IMG/VR virus record: IMGVR_UViG_3300031920_000341
Location: 80,267 to 144,266 of that record
Direction: 5' to 3' (one strand)
DNA length: 64,000 nt
Origin: a virus
Taxonomy: Duplodnaviria; Heunggongvirae; Uroviricota; Caudoviricetes
The notes beneath the pieces were generated by a model. The model was given only the letters and a program-made list of their open reading frames with translations. It did no database searches and had not been told where the DNA came from. This document shows, in pieces, positions 7,066 through 22,867 of this stretch. The position numbers and the translations under genes are program-made. Position 1 is the first letter of the stretch. Each line of letters opens with the position of its first letter.

Positions 7066-7668
7066 TTAAGACTTTCTCATGAATTCAGATAATGATACAA
7101 ATCCTTTACTACCATCAACAGGTTTAGCAATTTGTGTTTTTTCTGTATTTCTAATAGATTTACTAGACGTTTCTTTCATGATAGTCTTTTGTTCTTTAAC
7201 AGGAGCTGGTTTTTTAACCTCTTTCTTAGGTTTATCTTTCTTAACCTCTTTCTTTTTTACTTTAACAGGTTCTGGTTTCTTTTCTTCTTTAATTGGTACT
7301 TGTTTCACTTCAGGTGCTATTGGCGAAACATTAATACTAGGAATAACTTGTTTTAACGCTTGTCCGAACATTTCATTTACTTTAATGGATTTTTTAGTTC
7401 TAACACTAAATTCATCTTCCCATACATTGTAATATGAATCTTCGGCTACTAATTCAAATCTAAGTTTGCCTGCATTTTCATTTTCATATATTTTTAGCTG
7501 AGGTATATCAAAAGTACACACATCATTTTCTATTTCACCAAAAATAATATAGTTAATATTTTCATTTGCGATAAATACAAGTCTAGGTTGAATGCTATTA
7601 ACATCTATACCTTCTGCATTTATTTTAAACTTTAAGCTATCGTTAGTTTCATTATTATAAAATTCCAT
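7066..7668 (-). CDS. Hypothetical protein, beta-rich N-terminus with Lys/Pro-rich tail
   Basis: 200-aa ORF, downstream of ATATATAATTAAAA motif at 7682-7695. Confidence 0.75.
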   Translation of the reverse strand: MEFYNNETNDSLKFKINAEGIDVNSIQPRLVFIANENINYIIFGEIENDVCTFDIPQLKIYENENAGKLRFELVAEDSYYNVWEDEFSVRTKKSIKVNEMFGQALKQVIPSINVSPIAPEVKQVPIKEEKKPEPVKVKKKEVKKDKPKKEVKKPAPVKEQKTIMKETSSKSIRNTEKTQIAKPVDGSKGFVSLSEFMRKS

Positions 7669-7708
7669 TCTAATGGTCCCATTTTAATTATATATTTCCA
7701 TCAATGAT

Positions 7709-8077
7709 TTACGTTTTATCGCTATCTTTTAACAACTCTACTGTTACGCCTTTGTTTGACATAAGTTCAAGTTCGAAATCTTCAAAATTGATACCATATT
7801 TTCTTAATAATTCAGCAGTTATACTTTTCTTTAATTGTTTGACAGTAATTTTCTTCTTTTTCTTTCTATAATCAGTACGCCAATCAACCATGACTTTTAT
7901 AGCATCAATATGTTGTACGCCAACACCATAGATATCATCTATAAATTCACCATAACCACCGCCGCCTTTTATAACTTTAGTTGGTGTGATTATTTCATAC
8001 CTTACTACTAAATACTTTAACATCGGCAAAGAATTAATAATACCCTTTGTCAAGTAGTTCCATGCTATATTTGCCAT
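7709..8077 (-). CDS. Hypothetical protein, 122 aa
   Basis: ORF translationally coupled (TAATG) to the upstream 1033-aa gene. Confidence 0.7.
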   Translation of the reverse strand: MANIAWNYLTKGIINSLPMLKYLVVRYEIITPTKVIKGGGGYGEFIDDIYGVGVQHIDAIKVMVDWRTDYRKKKKKITVKQLKKSITAELLRKYGINFEDFELELMSNKGVTVELLKDSDKT

Positions 8078-13711: not shown

Positions 13712-16177
13712 TTATTGTATAATAGTATCTGCGGTACGAATTGTTGCAACCGATACGTCAGATCCAGTTGTTGTACCATCCACACTAAATGGTTTTATTT
13801 TAATAGTTGCTCTAGTATTTCTAACCTTTGCTCTATAGTAAATTTGACTAGCATATGTAACAGATACACTTTCTTGATCGGTTGTTGCGATTCTATCAAT
13901 AAACGGAACATAAACTTTATCAGCGGCATCAATTAATATAGGAGATGTGTTAATCTCATATGTATCTAAGTTTGCTACTGCTCCACCTAACGTGCTTTCA
14001 AATGTTAATTGAATATCGCTATCAACAGTTTTAACGTGAACACTTTCTCCATTTACGGTTACAAGGTCACCTCTGAAAACGTTACCATCAAATCCTCCAC
14101 CTGAATCGATTAGAGTTGTAGTTGAACCACCAGTTGCCGTACCAGTAATTTCATCTAATGTAAATACTAAACCAGTCCATGATGAATATCTTAATTTATA
14201 TTCTGCGCCATTATCTGAAATATCAACTAATACTAGTGTTCCACCACCAGATTTACCAACAGTATCTTGTGTAATAGATGCACCAACTGTTATAGAATTT
14301 GCTCCAACTGCTTCACCGCCGTCACATGCATATTCAGTCTTATCAATATCAGCTCCAGCTCCAGTTAATCTAAAGATAGAAACTCTATCATGAAGATTAG
14401 AAGTTTCTAGTCCTCCTACTAAATTAGTAACAGTCATAGTGATTGATGGTGGACGTTCCTTTGTACCACCTTCGATTGGAGTAAGAATGAATGAGTTAGC
14501 GTCAGCTGCTAAATAATTAGTTAAAAGAACTCCACGAGCGCCAAAGAATGTTCCTCCAGCAAATGTTCCTAATGGAGATGCTGTTTTGGGAGCAAACGTT
14601 GATACTGAGGTTGGAGTAAAGTTTCCACCTTGTTCACTGGTTACTAATCCACTTGTATCAAATGTTCCTCTTGTATCTCTAAGTAATATTACTCTAGTAG
14701 CGTCATCTACATCATTAAATGCAATAATAACACCAGTTGCTCCGGTACCTGCTTGTGTAACATCATCGCCTTCTGCAATTGTTCCAGTAACAGCACCAGT
14801 CCATGCTAAATAAACTTCACCACCAATATAATCTTCTCCGTTAATACCGTCGAGATCAGATGTTGTTTCTCCATTACGAGTAGCATACTTAATCCATTCA
14901 TAAACTTCAGTTAATGGGTTATTTAAACAATCAATTGTAATACCGTAATTTTCATTTACACTATTATCATCAATATCAGCAGCTATATATGTAAATGCAG
15001 CAGTTGGTATAGAATTACTGGTAAACCAAGTAGATAAACTTGGGCCTGCAGCACTAGGTGCTCCAATTCCAGTACCTGTTGTAGCACTAGCTGAAATAGC
15101 TTCAGCTGCTGTGAAAGCAATTTGTGGATCATCAATAGAAATATAAGTTAATGATACTCCAGCATCTACAAATGTTACAATACCACGTGCGCCTGATGTA
15201 CCACCTAAGATGATATCACCTACTATAAAAGTTCCTGAACCTGCAGTATAAGTAATATTCCAAATACCAGATGAGTTATCGAGGTCAGCCGCAGTTTGTA
15301 ACGGAATAGGGTTACGTCCACCAGATGTCGTAGAACAAGCTACTTCAAAGGATGCATATAAGTCACCATATTTTCTCGCAAGTACTGTAATGTATCCATC
15401 ATCGATAATATCCCACGTTGACAATGTTATATCTTTTAATGCAACACATATATCAATGTGACCATTATCGTACCAGTCTTGTGTATTATCATTCCATGAG
15501 AATAATCTTACTCTATCACCGTCTGTAGCAACAGGACCTTGATATTGATAAAGGTGAACGTTTGGATCAATGGTACCAAGTGAATATAAATTAGCCCATA
15601 TTTGTTCTCCTGTTGTTGATGCTGCATTTTGAGTTGCTGTGAAAGCACCTCTTGAGGAAGTAATAACTCCAGCAGCTGTATTAAAATCATTTGCTAATGC
15701 ACTTGTTAGTGGTCTAATTACCAAATAATCTGTAGTTCCGCCAGTATCAATAAATTCTACTAATGTACCAACATCGCCATCAGCATGAGTCATAGTTAAA
15801 CCTTCATCATCGGCTGCGGTAATCGTACCACCAGAAGCAACTGGAACTACAAGAACACCTGCATTAGTATCTACTACCCAAGTCCAACCTGATGTTCTAA
15901 GTGCACCACCTGTGATATGTTCCATTAAATCAAATGTAATATACCAAGGTTCAGTATCACCCGTGTCAATTTTTCCGATTGTGTACTCAACTGGTGTTTC
16001 TGCAGAAAAGCAAGTACCATCATCAATAGTAGTTGTCTCATCAAGCAGAGTTGCCATAGCTGAATAAATTTCATTCATTGTGTAGGTTAGATTAGTTCCA
16101 CCTAACCAACTTAATCTCTTTTGTCTGTTATCTGCTAAATAATCGACTTGAATATCCGCATTTAAAATTGTAGCCAT
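13712..16177 (-). CDS. Putative virion structural/appendage protein, 821 aa
   Basis: Gly/Thr/Asp-rich all-beta composition; heads the minus-strand structural cassette. Confidence 0.65.
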   Translation of the reverse strand: MATILNADIQVDYLADNRQKRLSWLGGTNLTYTMNEIYSAMATLLDETTTIDDGTCFSAETPVEYTIGKIDTGDTEPWYITFDLMEHITGGALRTSGWTWVVDTNAGVLVVPVASGGTITAADDEGLTMTHADGDVGTLVEFIDTGGTTDYLVIRPLTSALANDFNTAAGVITSSRGAFTATQNAASTTGEQIWANLYSLGTIDPNVHLYQYQGPVATDGDRVRLFSWNDNTQDWYDNGHIDICVALKDITLSTWDIIDDGYITVLARKYGDLYASFEVACSTTSGGRNPIPLQTAADLDNSSGIWNITYTAGSGTFIVGDIILGGTSGARGIVTFVDAGVSLTYISIDDPQIAFTAAEAISASATTGTGIGAPSAAGPSLSTWFTSNSIPTAAFTYIAADIDDNSVNENYGITIDCLNNPLTEVYEWIKYATRNGETTSDLDGINGEDYIGGEVYLAWTGAVTGTIAEGDDVTQAGTGATGVIIAFNDVDDATRVILLRDTRGTFDTSGLVTSEQGGNFTPTSVSTFAPKTASPLGTFAGGTFFGARGVLLTNYLAADANSFILTPIEGGTKERPPSITMTVTNLVGGLETSNLHDRVSIFRLTGAGADIDKTEYACDGGEAVGANSITVGASITQDTVGKSGGGTLVLVDISDNGAEYKLRYSSWTGLVFTLDEITGTATGGSTTTLIDSGGGFDGNVFRGDLVTVNGESVHVKTVDSDIQLTFESTLGGAVANLDTYEINTSPILIDAADKVYVPFIDRIATTDQESVSVTYASQIYYRAKVRNTRATIKIKPFSVDGTTTGSDVSVATIRTADTIIQ

Positions 16178-16279
16178 TTTTCATTGTTATTTTTTTGTAT
16201 AAGCTAATGTTATAGATTTATTTATTTCTATTTTTTATACAATTTCTTAACAATACATCATTGGCTAAAACTTTTTATA

Positions 16280-16672
16280 TTATAAGAGTAGGTTTTTTGC
16301 GCAAATAGCTGCAATTTTACTATCATACTGACCAGGATAATTTTCGTTTAGGAAGTCCATGACGTCTCTTATGCTTCTAATAGTAGGATTTTCTAACTTT
16401 TCTATAAAATGCTTTATACGGGCATTTAATTCATCATTAGGTATCATTTTAGGAAGGTATAACTCAAGATATTTATTTTCTTCTTCGGTATTCGTTAATT
16501 TATTATTAGCAATCATCTTTTTAATGATTTTAATAATTTCAATATCAGTTGGATCTTTACCAATTTTATTATCAACTTCACCAAGTAGTGTTGATAATAC
16601 TAATCTCATTTCTTTATCACCATTCCGTAATGCAAAAAGTTTATGATCGGTAATCTTTTCTTTTAATGTCAT
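16280..16672 (-). CDS. yqeY: GatB/YqeY domain protein
   Basis: TLKEKI...ALRNGDKEMRLVLSTLLGEV...IIKIIKKM...ELYLPKM matches the YqeY pattern. Confidence 0.85.
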   Translation of the reverse strand: MTLKEKITDHKLFALRNGDKEMRLVLSTLLGEVDNKIGKDPTDIEIIKIIKKMIANNKLTNTEEENKYLELYLPKMIPNDELNARIKHFIEKLENPTIRSIRDVMDFLNENYPGQYDSKIAAICAKNLLL

Positions 16673-16700
16673 ATTTTATTTTTTTTTTTTAATATTCAAG

Positions 16701-16774
16701 GGTGCCAAAAAAGGCTCGAACTTTTACTTCTAGAACCACAATCTAGTGTGCTAACCAATTACACCAAAGGCACC
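16701..16774 (-). tRNA. trnH: tRNA-His (GUG), encoded G-1 and C73, no CCA
   Basis: Anticodon arm CTAGA-TTGTGGT-TCTAG; T-loop TTCGAGC; two U-U mismatches at the base of the acceptor stem. Confidence 0.85.
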
Positions 16775-16781
16775 ATATTAA

Positions 16782-17639
16782 TTAATAATAAATATGTTCT
16801 CTATCGCGATGATCAACCCAATACACCATTCCGCCTGTAAATATTCCACTTACACCAGTCATATTATTTACGGTACGACCAGCAAAACCTTCAGAGAACT
16901 CAAACCAACCAACTAGATCATCCATTCTTATTCCATCTGGATTTCCACATGACTTCATTGTTCCACCGCCATATAAGTATTCAATTTCAGTTTTATGTAG
17001 ATTTCTATCATATATTAATACATTATCAATTATTCCTTTAAATGTATATAATTGAACATCATTTTTAGTACCAATCCAAAATGGTTTTATATTACCAAGT
17101 GGTTCAGTATGGCTTTCTATATTTATTGATGCGACAATTTGTCCATCTATCCAAATTGCGGCATATTCTAGTATATTATCACTTTCACGATATATTGTGA
17201 ATCCAATAAAATGATCTTTGCCATCATTTATTGAAAATTCTTCTGGACTAAGGACATTTTCAGTAGAACGCCCATTTAACTTAACCATCAATTTTAATTG
17301 ACCTCTACTATTCATTTGTAATCTAACATTATTATAATAATCAGTATTAAAATCTGATAAAATATATCCATATGGATAATCGCTTACTGTTGAAACCCAA
17401 CAAAACCAAGAAAATGAACCATAATAAGTATTGATTATTGCAGTATTAACATAACCCAAATCAACCAATCCAATACCACTATAATTCATTTCAACATACT
17501 TATCTTCTGATTGAGGCTGTGATTTAATATTAAATGAATCAGGTTCAATAATTATTTGATATTGAGCTGATGTACTATAATTAAATTGTAACATGATTAC
17601 AATTATAATCAGTAAATAATTTCTAAATTTTTTCATCAT
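16782..17639 (-). CDS. Secreted LamG/concanavalin-A-like domain protein
   Basis: Signal peptide MMKKFRNYLLIIIVIMLQF; DGKDHFIG...IWIDGQ...FWIG...FKGIIDNVLIYDRNL LamG signature. Confidence 0.8.
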   Translation of the reverse strand: MMKKFRNYLLIIIVIMLQFNYSTSAQYQIIIEPDSFNIKSQPQSEDKYVEMNYSGIGLVDLGYVNTAIINTYYGSFSWFCWVSTVSDYPYGYILSDFNTDYYNNVRLQMNSRGQLKLMVKLNGRSTENVLSPEEFSINDGKDHFIGFTIYRESDNILEYAAIWIDGQIVASINIESHTEPLGNIKPFWIGTKNDVQLYTFKGIIDNVLIYDRNLHKTEIEYLYGGGTMKSCGNPDGIRMDDLVGWFEFSEGFAGRTVNNMTGVSGIFTGGMVYWVDHRDREHIYY

Positions 17640-17901
17640 TTATAATTTTTGATATTATTTGTTTATTAATGTCAGAAGATAATATTTCTACGTTTTTTCC
17701 TGGAAAATCTAGAGATTTCCATCCATTATTTGGATCACCTAAAATAATTGCACCACGTTCAACAGATTCTTGAAATGTTTTAAAATCTGGATCGCCACAA
17801 CTACATTTATCTGTATGGCCACAATAACATAGCTTACCTTCTTCAGACTTAGTTGTTTTTCTAAGTATAAGCCAATCTTTATAGTCTTGTACTGTTATCA
17901 T
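17623..17901 (-). CDS. Hypothetical protein with CxCx5CxC motif (probable start MITVQDY at 17901)
   Basis: LCYCGHTDKCSCGDPD; the track's longer start lies deep inside the upstream ORF. Confidence 0.6.
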   Translation of the reverse strand: MITVQDYKDWLILRKTTKSEEGKLCYCGHTDKCSCGDPDFKTFQESVERGAIILGDPNNGWKSLDFPGKNVEILSSDINKQIISKIINDEKI

Positions 17902-18199
17902 AATTAAAATGCGTTTTACCTGGTTTAGGTTCCCATTCAAACCATTGCCAACTTGGTTTAATATAATAACACTTGTTGTTTTCATCAACAATCTTATGTG
18001 CATTATATTTACCAACATGTAACTTTTGTGGATTTGAAATTATTAAATTCTTGCCATTTGGATATACATATTCCCTATAATATTCATCAGAAATATCTGT
18101 AAATTCTAATCCACTCTGATTAATAAATTTAAATTCCTTTGGTGTAATATCATCAAATGCTTTTTCTTTAAGCTGTTTAAAAAATGTTCTTATATTCAT
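17879..18199 (-). CDS. Hypothetical protein, 106 aa
   Basis: ORF directly downstream of tRNA-Trp. Confidence 0.65.
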   Translation of the reverse strand: MNIRTFFKQLKEKAFDDITPKEFKFINQSGLEFTDISDEYYREYVYPNGKNLIISNPQKLHVGKYNAHKIVDENNKCYYIKPSWQWFEWEPKPGKTHFNYDNSTRL

Positions 18200-18224
18200 T
18201 ATTTAGTTTATTAGTTTAAAATTG

Positions 18225-18297
18225 CACGTATGACAGGCTTCGATCCCGTGACATCCACTTTTGGAGAGTGGCACTCTACCAGCTGAGTTACATACGT
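18225..18297 (-). tRNA. trnW: tRNA-Trp (CCA)
   Basis: ACGTATG acceptor stem; anticodon arm CCACT-CTCCAAA-AGTGG; no encoded CCA end. Confidence 0.9.
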
Positions 18298-18300
18298 ATA

Positions 18301-18792
18301 TTATTTTTTAATCCATATCTTCATTTTTTGTGGCGCTCTTGATTTTCCACCAAAATAAGGTCTTAACCAAAATCCCCAATTTTTATCATGTGTTTCAAAT
18401 ACTTCAACACTATTAGGATCCACATTTGTATTTAAGATATAACTTTCGCCATTTATTGTAATATAAATTATAAACCATTTATTAGTTTTAACATCACAAA
18501 GAAATTCTTTTTGATATCCTTCTTGACTTCCATCATACCAATAAGCATATAACTTAATAATATCTTTTTTATCAAAATCAGGTTGCCATCCAACACGTAT
18601 TGAGTTATTATGATGATCAAACCCAAATCCTAATCCACATAATTTATTAATTCCAGTAAATTCAACATTTTCTCTTTCATACCAACAATTTTTATCAAAT
18701 TTAATGTTAAAATGCGCATCAGTTATATTAACGTGTGGTTTTATAAAGAACGGAAAACTGTAATGTAAACCTTTTAATATTGTAAATTTCAT
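18301..18792 (-). CDS. Hypothetical aromatic-rich beta protein, 163 aa
   Basis: ORF between tRNA-Ser(GCU) and tRNA-Trp; promoter-like motif at 18829-18857. Confidence 0.75.
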   Translation of the reverse strand: MKFTILKGLHYSFPFFIKPHVNITDAHFNIKFDKNCWYERENVEFTGINKLCGLGFGFDHHNNSIRVGWQPDFDKKDIIKLYAYWYDGSQEGYQKEFLCDVKTNKWFIIYITINGESYILNTNVDPNSVEVFETHDKNWGFWLRPYFGGKSRAPQKMKIWIKK

Positions 18793-18860
18793 TCATATTG
18801 ATTATTTTTACTGCATTATTAATTATAAATTATACGAACTTTAATATTAAAGTTTTAAGT

Positions 18861-18944
18861 GGAAGGTGAGAGGATCGAACTCTCGCAAGTGTTACCTTGT
18901 CTCAGATTAGCAATCTGGCCCGTTACCACTCCGGCAACCTTCCA
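18861..18944 (-). tRNA. trnS: tRNA-Ser (GCU), type II
   Basis: GGAAGGT/ACCTTCC acceptor; loop TTGCTAA; long variable arm; C27-A43 mismatch and A73. Confidence 0.9.
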
Positions 18945-18981
18945 TATTTAACTGTATTTTTCAAAGAACTTTATTATAAAG

Positions 18982-19064
18982 CGGAAAGTAAACGAATCGA
19001 ACGCTCATCTGTAACGATGGCCTGGATTTCAAGTCCAGTTAGACACCATTGTCTGCTACCTTCC
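18982..19064 (-). tRNA. trnS: tRNA-Ser (UGA), type II
   Basis: GGAAGGT/ACTTTCC acceptor; CTGGA-CTTGAAA-TCCAG; long variable arm; G73. Confidence 0.9.
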
Positions 19065-19070
19065 ATAAAT

Positions 19071-19101
19071 AAAAAAACCGAGACTAATAAAGACTCGGTT
19101 T
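19071..19101 (-). terminator. Intrinsic terminator immediately upstream of tRNA-Ser(UGA); attenuator 3:4 hairpin
   Basis: AAACCGAG-T-CT-TTATT-AG-T-CTCGGTTT with a U7 tract ending 6 nt before the tRNA 5' end. Confidence 0.85.
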
Positions 19102-19149
19102 GTAAAAAGTATGATTAAAAATAAAAATTAAGCATTACTTGGCCGAGTC
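19092..19149 (-). promoter_or_regulatory. Antiterminator (2:3) pairing GACTCGG (19149-19143) with CCGAGTC (19098-19092)
   Basis: 7-bp GC-rich complement in otherwise AT-rich DNA that competes for the terminator 5' arm. Confidence 0.7.
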
Positions 19150-19205
19150 GCAAATATGTGACTAGATGAACTGGACCAACTGTGTATGTATAATATTTTT
19201 CTCAT
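19128..19205 (-). CDS. Putative attenuator leader peptide MRKILYIHSWSSSSSHIFATRPSNA (25 aa)
   Basis: ATG at 19205, TAA at 19128; codons 8-16 are CAC AGT TGG TCC AGT TCA TCT AGT CAC. Confidence 0.75.
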   Translation of the reverse strand: MRKILYIHSWSSSSSHIFATRPSNA

Positions 19206-19311
19206 TACTTAATTATGCTTTATTTTGTTAAATTTTATTAAAATATTAATTTTAAATGGATTAAGCACTAACCCTCTATCAAGTAGATTTATAAAAATCA
19301 TTCTTGATTAC

Positions 19312-19325
19312 TTTTAATTATATAT
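19312..19325 (-). promoter_or_regulatory. Putative late-type promoter motif ATATATAATTAAAA upstream of the leader
   Basis: Identical 14-mer upstream of genes at 7682-7695(-) and 22877-22890(+). Confidence 0.5.
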
Positions 19326-19342
19326 TCGAGTTTTAATGTATT

Positions 19343-19666
19343 TTATTTTTCAATAGGAGGTGGCTCAACATATGTCATTTCGTCATAAAGATCTTCTTCT
19401 GAAACATTAACTATTTCAGAAAGACGTTTTGAAAGAATCCTTCCACGTGCACTTTCTTTATTTAGTTCAATTTCTGCTGAATTCAATTGAGCGAGTTCTA
19501 ACGTTTTAGCATTCCTGATTGTACGGATATCTTGTAATTTTATATTAATTACTTTTCCGAGATCTTCAAATTGTTTTAATGCTATATCAAATGCAGATAC
19601 ACAACTTTTACTTTGTTGAGCAATTGATTTAACCATTTTAATTGTACCTGTTTTTACATTTCTCAT
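19343..19666 (-). CDS. Coiled-coil hypothetical protein, 107 aa
   Basis: ORF track; plausible operon position. Confidence 0.7.
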   Translation of the reverse strand: MRNVKTGTIKMVKSIAQQSKSCVSAFDIALKQFEDLGKVINIKLQDIRTIRNAKTLELAQLNSAEIELNKESARGRILSKRLSEIVNVSEEDLYDEMTYVEPPPIEK

Positions 19667-19683
19667 CTTTTTATATATTATTT

Positions 19684-20331
19684 TTATTTAACTCTACTTG
19701 CTTGTACTTGATTTCCTGATATTTTATTAAGTGATGCATATGCTGCACGTACTTGATCACGAGTCCATGTTGGCTCAAAATATAATGAAATTGTATTATT
19801 TTGTTCTGAACCACATTTCCAATAACCCATTGTTCCAGTAGAATATGCATTCATTATTTGGCCAGAACGACGAATATATTTCTGAGGATTATCCATATTA
19901 TTTTTTGGATCATTAATTTCTAATTCATCAATTAGATCGGTAGAAGAACTTATATTATCAAGAGTAGTATTGCTATTGTTATCATCAACAACTACTACTG
20001 GTATACTTAAATCATCATGATCAATACTTGGATAATAAACTCTAAATATAGAACCTTGTTCTATATAAATATCAATTTCTTGTTCATCACACAATTCCTT
20101 CATATCATATGATACAGTATGTTGTTCTGCAATAAAACCCCATATGCGTAATCTGTTTTTAACATCAAGCGTGGTTGTTTTACCAAACCTACGAAATTCA
20201 CATTTTACGGCACTAATAAGATTATCATGCCCATAAGGTAATTTATCTTTAAGTTTTGTTTCTTTACTTTCACCTACTATTCCAAGTGTTAAAACTCCTA
20301 ATGCACAATTATCAAAAATATTGTCTTTCAT
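19684..20331 (-). CDS. Hypothetical protein, 215 aa
   Basis: ORF track; plausible operon position. Confidence 0.7.
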   Translation of the reverse strand: MKDNIFDNCALGVLTLGIVGESKETKLKDKLPYGHDNLISAVKCEFRRFGKTTTLDVKNRLRIWGFIAEQHTVSYDMKELCDEQEIDIYIEQGSIFRVYYPSIDHDDLSIPVVVVDDNNSNTTLDNISSSTDLIDELEINDPKNNMDNPQKYIRRSGQIMNAYSTGTMGYWKCGSEQNNTISLYFEPTWTRDQVRAAYASLNKISGNQVQASRVK

Positions 20332-20405
20332 TTTTTATATTTTAGTTTTAAAAATAATATTGCAAACATACTACTTTATTTTGAAACAGAAAAGTAATTA
20401 TAATT

Positions 20406-22177: not shown

Positions 22178-22867
22178 ATGGGATACGATGTAGGACCTAA
22201 ACTTAATATAAACAAAAAAGAATTACGTGAAGAAATAGTTAAATCAAAAGAAAATGATAAATTAACACCAAATGCTTTAAAATCATTAATTGAAATAGCT
22301 AATCATGCAATTAATAGATTACCTTATAATAATCCAATCGATAGAGAAGATTGTATACAGTCAGCTTTATATGATTTAATGAAATATTGGAGAAATTATA
22401 ATCCAGAAATTTCTGATAATGCTTTTGCTTTTTATACACAGATGGCCAAAAATGGTTATGCTAAAGTATTTAATGTAATTCATAAGAATAAAAAACTAAA
22501 AAGTCTTAAGGTATTTAAACCGAGTAATTCTTTTTATGATTTAAAATCATTAAAATATTCTTTACTTGATTATTACGATACTAATATAAAAGAACAATTT
22601 CTTGATAACAATACATCTAATTTTAGATATGATGTTCCAGATAATTTGGTTGAAAATTATTTTAGATATTCTGGCAATAAAAAGAAATGGAGTGCCTGGT
22701 CTAAATTTGATATAATGGAAATGGAACCAGATTTCGATGAAATATTCAGCCACGAAGATAATAATACAATAGACGCATACTTTTTTGAATTTAAGTTTGA
22801 ATTTAAGACAAATATTGATTTTGTTTCATTAGATCAGTTAGGTGAAAGCGAAATCTACAGTATTTAA
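22178..22867 (+). CDS. T4 gp55-like late sigma factor with inserted domain
   Basis: INKKELREEI...DREDCIQSALYDLMKYWRNYNPEISDNAFAFYTQMAKNG resembles the gp55 region-2 core. Confidence 0.75.
   Translation: MGYDVGPKLNINKKELREEIVKSKENDKLTPNALKSLIEIANHAINRLPYNNPIDREDCIQSALYDLMKYWRNYNPEISDNAFAFYTQMAKNGYAKVFNVIHKNKKLKSLKVFKPSNSFYDLKSLKYSLLDYYDTNIKEQFLDNNTSNFRYDVPDNLVENYFRYSGNKKKWSAWSKFDIMEMEPDFDEIFSHEDNNTIDAYFFEFKFEFKTNIDFVSLDQLGESEIYSI

Follow-up and report, generated by a model that had tools for sequence, protein, structure and literature searches.

A candidate ribosome-mediated attenuator upstream of phage tRNA genes, with leader codons matching the tRNAs that it would gate

A stretch of 64,000 nucleotides (nt) of phage DNA, bases 80267-144266 of the 208,266-bp IMG/VR record IMGVR_UViG_3300031920_000341, is referred to here as the window. 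On its minus strand a group of transfer RNA (tRNA) genes, called unit A below, is preceded by a 25-codon open reading frame (ORF) and an intrinsic terminator, and we consider it quite probable that this arrangement is a ribosome-mediated (leader-peptide) transcription attenuator gating the phage tRNA operon. The phage would then probably restrict production of these Ser, Trp and His tRNAs to times at which the corresponding codons are read slowly. The small ORF (leader A), the match between its codons and the downstream tRNAs, the terminator, three mutually exclusive pairings that depend on the position of the ribosome, and the recurrence of leaders with matched codons in other units and other phages are all shown by computation. 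The usual debate on phage tRNAs concerns why phages carry them (codon bias, host shut-off or escape from tRNA-cleaving defences), and the control of the expression of phages' own tRNA genes is largely unknown. If the proposed reading is true, leader-peptide attenuation would here be seen to control tRNA genes for the first time; unit A would constitute a demand-driven circuit of tRNA supply and would extend attenuation from amino-acid operons to the translation apparatus.

Leader codons, terminator and alternative pairings of unit A

The elements on which the proposed attenuator rests are the following.

19128..19205, minus strand: leader ORF, 25 codons plus TAA (ATG at 19205, TAA at 19130-19128)
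19158..19184, minus strand: control codons 8-16, His Ser Trp Ser Ser Ser Ser Ser His, from codon enrichment
19139..19179, minus strand: 1:2 hairpin (anti-antiterminator), in the minimum-energy and centroid structures
19092..19149, minus strand: antiterminator (2:3), GACUCGG (19149-19143) with CCGAGUC (19098-19092) and a helix at about 19140-19107 inside
19071..19101, minus strand: intrinsic terminator (3:4), from folding, with an 8-bp outer stem, two inner pairs and a U7 tail
18981..19064, minus strand: tRNA-Ser(UGA), the first gated gene (ARAGORN; Rfam clan hit)
18859..18943, minus strand: tRNA-Ser(GCU) (ARAGORN; RF00005, 53.4 bits)
18224..18297, minus strand: tRNA-Trp(CCA) (ARAGORN; RF00005, 58 bits)
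16700..16773, minus strand: tRNA-His(GUG), the last tRNA of the unit (ARAGORN; RF00005, 52.3 bits)

A preliminary description of this DNA had reported a minus-strand ORF of 25 codons at 19205-19128 with the run His-Ser-Trp-Ser-Ser-Ser-Ser-Ser-His, followed by tRNAs for Ser(UGA), Ser(GCU), Trp(CCA) and His(GUG); the ORF and its run are present as claimed, and all four tRNAs were recovered by ARAGORN. Codons 8-16 (19184-19158) read CAC AGT TGG TCC AGT TCA TCT AGT CAC. It can be seen that the nine cognate codons form an unbroken run, which covers both serine codon boxes (AGU, UCC, UCA and UCU) together with Trp and His. The His codons are CAC, a codon that is rare in the phage (2.2 per thousand, versus 14.4 for CAT) and is the exact Watson-Crick match to the GUG anticodon of the downstream tRNA-His. 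When the expected codon usage was taken from 175 long ORFs of the same genome, 10 of the 24 leader codons were cognate to the four downstream tRNAs against 2.25 expected (P = 3e-5), and under a strict wobble rule the count was 8 of 24 (P = 3e-4). For the Ser/Trp/His codon set leader A ranked first among the 1592 ATG-ORFs of 15-60 codons on both strands of the 208-kb genome. Among all ATGs its start context scores at the 98th percentile, and relative to the real genes of the phage it is at the median.

The terminator at 19101-19071 has a folding energy of -12.2 kcal/mol (z = -4.7), equalled by 0 of 200 shuffles, and its U-run, as had been claimed, ends 6 nt short of tRNA-Ser(UGA), a gene that should therefore be reached by read-through. 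About 25 other terminators of this class occur in the genome; a simple terminator scan missed the one at 19101-19071 only through reading its loop as longer than 8 nt. The fold of the entire leader region has z = -4.0. The four tRNAs named by the leader are exactly the tRNAs of unit A, because no further minus-strand terminator was found between 19071 and about 13456.

Three pairings compete upstream of the first tRNA. The segment GACUCGG in the leader was verified as the exact complement of CCGAGUC in the 5' arm of the terminator, as the preliminary description had stated. That description had also proposed a 1:2 structure that would compete for this segment. Its UUGGUC/GGCCAA helix is present, while its inner register AGUC/GACU was not borne out, the minimum-energy fold (19179-19139) having AGUU/GACU instead; GACUCGG is sequestered in the 1:2 hairpin under either inner register. 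Region 1 of the hairpin lies within the control codons and region 2 holds GACUCGG.

The switch was then folded on nascent RNA extending up to the terminator loop, with about 30 nt blocked around a modelled ribosome. Without a ribosome the RNA adopts the 1:2 hairpin (-16.4 kcal/mol), which leaves the terminator arm free of pairing. When the ribosomal A site is placed at any one of codons 8-15, GACUCGG and CCGAGUC pair around the inner helix in the best fold (-12.6 kcal/mol), and with the ribosome at codon 16 or later neither this antiterminator nor the 1:2 hairpin is found in the constrained folds. The arm pairing contributes -8.6 kcal/mol when the ribosome is stalled and 0.0 when the RNA is free. 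Among 1500 mononucleotide shuffles of the leader, 0.5% reach the stalled-state value and none shows both states. The 1:2 / 2:3 / 3:4 logic that had been suggested for this region is thus supported computationally. Taken together, the codon match and the switch go far beyond chance, which is excluded on three counts because of the cognate-codon P of 3e-5, the first rank among 1592 ORFs and the occurrence of the switch in 0 of 1500 shuffled leaders.

From this arrangement we infer translation of the leader, coupling of transcription and translation, stalling, regulated read-through and a natural trigger, which might work as follows. The polymerase would transcribe the 25-codon leader and a ribosome would begin to translate it. 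Given a good supply of charged Ser, Trp and His tRNAs, the ribosome would pass codons 8-16 to the stop and cover region 2, the terminator would form, and transcription would halt just before tRNA-Ser(UGA). If the leader is left untranslated, the 1:2 hairpin would sequester region 2 with termination likewise as the outcome. Slow decoding of Ser, Trp or His codons would stall the ribosome in region 1 and leave GACUCGG free to pair with CCGAGUC. The resulting antitermination would allow read-through into tRNA-Ser(UGA), tRNA-Ser(GCU), a 163-amino-acid (aa) ORF, tRNA-Trp, three ORFs and tRNA-His. The tRNA products would relieve the stall, giving negative feedback on the supply of exactly those tRNAs. 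The signal may be tRNA supply, amino-acid supply or tRNA cleavage; an anti-defence role of the circuit is a matter of speculation.

Codon-matched leaders at other tRNA clusters

The record holds 14 tRNAs, grouped as three clusters, and the other two clusters are also preceded by small ORFs.

G000:C1:182799-182876, plus strand: leader B, 25 codons, upstream of Arg(ACG)/Leu(UAA)/Ile(GAU)/Arg(CCU)/Cys(GCA)
G000:C1:204033-204146, plus strand: leader C, 37 codons, upstream of Pro/Asn/Thr/Lys/Asp

Leader B contains 8 Arg, 5 Leu, 3 Ile and 1 Cys codons. Sixteen of its 24 codons are cognate (P = 8e-10), the top result among all 4776 ORF-by-set tests; CGA occurs four times though it is rare in phage genes, and the leader ends with CGA-UGU-AGG. 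Leader C is rich in Thr, Lys, Pro, Asp and Asn and ranks 10 of 1592 for its own tRNA set. In unit C (region 204033-204212) tRNA-Pro follows about 12 nt after a strong terminator (-17.8 kcal/mol), and codons 16-18 and 29-31 of leader C are each able to pair with the 5' arm of that terminator.

Further relatives were reached via the PolB-type exonuclease of the phage, namely IMG/VR jumbo phages at about 44% identity, and their tRNAs were mapped. In four of them (G001, G002, G003 and G026) a 23-codon leader and a terminator stand directly before a Cys/His/Leu/Arg cluster. The G026 cluster adds two Ser tRNAs, and the Ser codons of its leader then match, so that 16 of 22 codons are cognate. The Arg(ACG) gene is found in G003 and not in G002, and the leader has six Arg codons in G003 versus three in G002. 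G001-G003 have an additional, longer leader with a terminator, and the cluster behind it numbers 13 to 18 tRNAs according to the phage.

The cultured Cellulophaga phage phi4:1 (NC_021788.1) contains three promoter-leader-terminator-tRNA units. Eleven consecutive codons of the first leader (Q R L H L Q E L E Q P) cover all seven downstream tRNAs. The second leader overlaps the annotated gene gp075 (1690-1809 of NC_021788.1 86300-91200); the annotated 5' end of gp075 falls within repeated promoter sequence, and the shorter leader ORF appears the likelier gene. The third has N, Y, C, S, W and F codons and precedes Tyr, Ser, Asn, Trp and Phe tRNAs together with a 'pseudo' tRNA (90853-90926), whose anticodon loop UUGCAAA is Cys-like (GCA); the leader before it contains Cys codons. 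A phi4:1 leader ATG lies about 4 nt after the promoter -7 box, which suggests that the transcript has only a short 5' end before it.

The preliminary description had proposed that leader codons should co-vary with the identity of the downstream tRNAs in related phages. For this a permutation test was performed on eight units, three of this genome, two of IMG/VR and three of phi4:1; it left out G002 and G003, which are near-copies of G001, the Asp/Met/Met unit of G007, and the G005 unit with its short ORF overlapping the terminator. Each of the eight leaders scores best against its own tRNA set, and the true leader-tRNA pairing is the single best of 40,320 permutations (P = 1/40,320). Across leaders it is composition rather than sequence that is conserved. 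Compensatory stem changes, which had likewise been suggested as a check, were found in part. In the Cys/His/Leu/Arg leader of the relatives, the helix that joins the leader's 3' end to the terminator arm is paired to 94%, and two of its pairs differ on both sides from one clade to the other; this antiterminator pairing collapses when the partner is slid by at least one column; for leader A itself no homologue was available. With four sequences and one event, these compensatory pairs may be taken as supportive, not decisive.

The design is not found at every tRNA gene. Among 30 further IMG/VR relatives, 23 fragments carry no tRNA, and no leader ORF was found upstream of the solitary Ser(UGA) and Leu(UAG) tRNAs of relatives. 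In phage T5 (NC_005859.1) the small ORFs upstream of tRNAs whose translations were compared are not codon-matched to the tRNAs that follow, and therefore the design is not universal. As a separate observation, tRNA-Met(CAU) in G030 and G017 comes after some 150 nt of GC-rich non-coding sequence that seems to be structured and holds no ORF; in G017 this stretch ends in a terminator-like hairpin, and it is an element of another kind.

It is reasonably likely that phages of Bacteroidota type possess a family of multivalent decoding-speed sensors, in which each tRNA operon stands behind a mini-gene listing its own codons; tRNAs would thus be autoregulated set by set, with a boost when host tRNAs are depleted, degraded or cleaved. 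This proposal is directly testable in the cultured phage phi4:1. Leaders of this kind would show which tRNAs share one transcription unit and would flag odd tRNA genes, as the Cys codon in phi4:1 points to the 'pseudo' tRNA with the GCA loop. They might also serve as compact codon-specific sensors for synthetic biology in Bacteroidota.

Genomic context, promoters and rival explanations

The record comes from a marine-sediment metagenome, has 29% GC and is estimated to be 78% complete. Among sequencing runs the stretch was found in the source sediment sample alone, with no RNA run listed as containing it. Its genes are A-rich at -17 to -10 before the start codon and lack a Shine-Dalgarno signal, the phage promoter includes the Bacteroidota -7 box TAnnTTTG, and comparison of the PolB-type exonuclease places Cellulophaga and Flavobacterium phages as the nearest cultured relatives; by these features it is a jumbo phage with a Bacteroidota-type host. 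The closest exonuclease relatives (54-66% identity) lie on short contigs. The phage is a very isolated one: neither megablast or blastn against GenBank phages nor exact patterns in IMG/VR found DNA relatives of it, and the 107-aa protein flanking leader A is an orphan with no relative among 5.8 billion proteins.

The genes that would be gated are those of the four tRNAs, of a lectin-like and a YqeY-like protein, and ORFs of unknown function. These and the other features around the leader are listed below.

18301..18792, minus strand: 163-aa ORF between tRNA-Ser(GCU) and tRNA-Trp, its stop 3 nt before the start of tRNA-Trp
16782..17639, minus strand: concanavalin-A-like lectin/glucanase domain protein (Laminin_G_3), between tRNA-Trp and tRNA-His
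16280..16672, minus strand: YqeY/GatB-like protein (PHROG 'tRNA amidotransferase', Pfam YqeY), directly after tRNA-His
19209..19301, minus strand: 30-codon ORF of uncertain status between the 16-mer and leader A, its TAA 3 nt before the leader ATG
19312..19327, minus strand: 16-mer GAATATATAATTAAAA, a possible second promoter class, with repeated copies before other genes
20363..20396, minus strand: nearest upstream copy of the bipartite promoter, driving ORF215 and ORF107

The 163-aa ORF is a member of a large, uncharacterised family, of which 1319 representatives were found at E <= 0.001; certain His, Asn, Ser, Arg and Tyr positions are invariant in it, and no Pfam or PHROG entry matches. 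The family was considered as a tRNA-linked marker and rejected, six contigs carrying it without a tRNA. The start context of the 30-codon ORF is at the 23rd percentile of real genes, and by inspection its composition bears no obvious likeness to the tRNA set of unit A.

One promoter type of the phage is bipartite, with a TACTTTTC box and, after 18 nt, TAnnTTTG; 13 copies of it occur in the genome. Two copies with a TACTTTTCTGTTTCA-like box and TAnnTTTG, at window 20396 and genome 203889, are nearly identical over about 37 nt. No copy was found from leader A to the tRNAs or onward to the next minus-strand terminator at about 13456. A transcription start between the terminator and tRNA-Ser had been named as a finding that would speak against attenuation; in the scan for the phage promoter, which covers this promoter only, no copy lies there. 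The bipartite promoter at 20363..20396 could read on into leader A. The 16-mer at 19327-19312 has an identical copy 12 nt upstream of the ATG of leader B and a 13/16 copy upstream of leader C, and four other genes have a one-mismatch copy 10-25 nt before their start codons; the 16-mer may represent a second promoter class, for example for the phage's sigma factor (22178-22867). Sites of the form (G/A)AATATATAATTAAAA are found in the window at 19312-19327 (minus), 22875 (plus) and 7697 (minus), and upstream of all three leaders.

Two other promoter candidates were set aside. The loose AATATATAAT motif was dropped, its 229 one-mismatch matches being noise in DNA of this GC content, and a sigma-70 promoter scan gave sites no more numerous than in shuffles and, being unsuited to a Bacteroidota-type phage, was not used. 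The sigma-70-like motif at 18829-18857, which the preliminary description had mentioned as a possible independent promoter for the Trp and His tRNAs, is uninformative in such a phage, and an internal start before the 163-aa ORF is therefore possible.

Several observations weigh against the attenuator proposed for unit A, and some of them lend themselves to other explanations. Full-length folds at equilibrium favour the terminator even with a stalled ribosome, so that antitermination must be kinetic; in the classical trp attenuator the terminator is likewise favoured at equilibrium and the choice is kinetic. Leader A has no homologue in the collections searched, namely GenBank phages by megablast and blastn (where only tRNA-Ser matched) and IMG/VR by exact patterns, the orphan 107-aa protein beside it leading to none either, and its own stems are therefore unavailable for covariation. 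In some relatives the leader ORF was picked by eye, with GTG starts in two cases, and the enrichment of leader C by itself is weak (P = 0.08). The promoter of leader A is an uncertain point, the candidates being the 16-mer at 19327 and the bipartite copy 1.2 kb upstream. The simple attenuator model does not fit every unit. Unit B has a full bipartite promoter (182883) between its leader ORF and tRNA-Arg, and the genome terminator scan gave no good or convincing intrinsic terminator there. In unit C the antiterminator is the default fold without a ribosome, which is a different logic. These features of units B and C would be accommodated if the leaders were sensors of decoding speed with another output, such as Rho-dependent termination, RNA processing or stability, or with another signal, such as host amino-acid starvation. 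The signal in particular could differ, as a stalled ribosome is blind to whether the amino acid or the tRNA is missing, which is established for attenuation (PMC1183508). We regard this explanation as unlikely for unit A, where terminator, antiterminator and anti-antiterminator all occur, stand out statistically and respond to the place of the ribosome as in the classical case, and where the regulated products are tRNAs, whose supply closes the loop most directly.

The same region might be read more simply, the ORF encoding a real Ser-rich small peptide with a terminator of its own, the tRNAs being transcribed from an unrecognised promoter, and the codon match being incidental. Small genes are frequent in phages, the start context of leader A is gene-like, the terminator is of an ordinary class, and a 7/8 match to the upstream box of the promoter (TACTTTTT, 19109-19102) stands just before it, which itself counts against attenuation. 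No -7 box was found at the required spacing after this match, however, and only 6 nt separate the U-run from the tRNA. Moreover, 8 of 8 leaders in three lineages match their own tRNA sets with composition and not sequence kept, and a switch architecture is unexpected at an ordinary gene end; we therefore hold this explanation to be very unlikely. Even less credit can be given to a chance ORF in AT-rich DNA followed by the terminator of the upstream ORF215-ORF107 operon, an idea that draws on the abundance of ORFs of about 25 codons (1592 of 15-60 codons in the genome) and on the nearest recognisable promoter, which drives that operon. The terminator lies 240 nt past the ORF107 stop, leader A, with its nine consecutive cognate codons, is first of those 1592 ORFs for its cognate set, an exact complement of 7 nt for the antiterminator and a switch governed by the ribosome are both found, and the design is repeated at other clusters and in other phages. 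Preferably, leader A may be regarded as the sensor of an attenuator gating the tRNAs of unit A.

Comparison with known systems

In a full-text literature search no account of attenuation acting on tRNA genes, whether of phages or of other origin, was found, in agreement with the preliminary description, whose author knew of none for phage tRNA genes. Searching 16000-20000 with cmscan (E up to 10) gave no match to the Rfam models His_leader, Trp_leader, Thr_leader, Leu_leader or T-box; only the tRNAs and weak chance matches were returned.

The tRNA regions of T4 and T5 resemble unit A in that tRNA clusters lie there amid small ORFs, homing-endonuclease genes, genes for tRNA-like stable RNAs and a YqeY/GatB-like gene; T5.081 in the T5 region is the same kind of gene as the YqeY/GatB-like gene at window 16672-16280. 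Unlike unit A, T5 has annotated promoters directly before its tRNA groups. Among the small T5 ORFs whose translations were compared, T5.070 (7628-7756 in the T5 stretch L144) is the only one that precedes a matching tRNA; it encodes 42 aa, has six Cys arranged as paired CxxC motifs and lies just before tRNA-Cys. It is probably a zinc-ribbon protein, and its match to tRNA-Cys coincidental.

The T-box (RF00230) is similar to unit A in coupling the state of tRNA to a choice between terminator and antiterminator upstream of translation-related genes. It differs in that it binds uncharged tRNA without a ribosome or a leader ORF and in that each responds to a single tRNA. Its targets are aminoacyl-tRNA synthetase and amino-acid genes, whereas those of leader A would be tRNAs. 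The polycysteine leaderless short ORFs of mycobacteria are also alike, as described in bioRxiv 10.1101/834739, in that a codon-rich ORF at the 5' end senses decoding and controls an operon. The spacing of about 4 nt between the -7 box and the leader ATG in phi4:1 suggests a similarly short 5' end. The mycobacterial ORFs reportedly sense one amino acid and control genes of cysteine metabolism, unlike leader A with its tRNAs.

The closest likeness in design is to the classical attenuators, in which, according to PMC3082878 and PMC1183508, the position of the ribosome decides between an antiterminator and an intrinsic terminator. Leader A shares with thrL (Thr, Ile), the ilv leaders (Leu, Val, Ile), hisL, trpL and pheL a short leader, a run of regulatory codons and 1:2/2:3/3:4 hairpins, and like thrL and the ilv leaders it would sense several amino acids through one leader. 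The members of this class habitually regulate amino-acid biosynthesis or aminoacyl-tRNA synthetase genes, and the genes of unit A are of neither kind. Unlike the enterobacterial leaders, leader A is encoded by a phage whose type of host does without Shine-Dalgarno signals, and it shows no sequence relation to them; and in place of biosynthetic enzymes it would gate tRNA genes, the product of which would act directly on the sensor.

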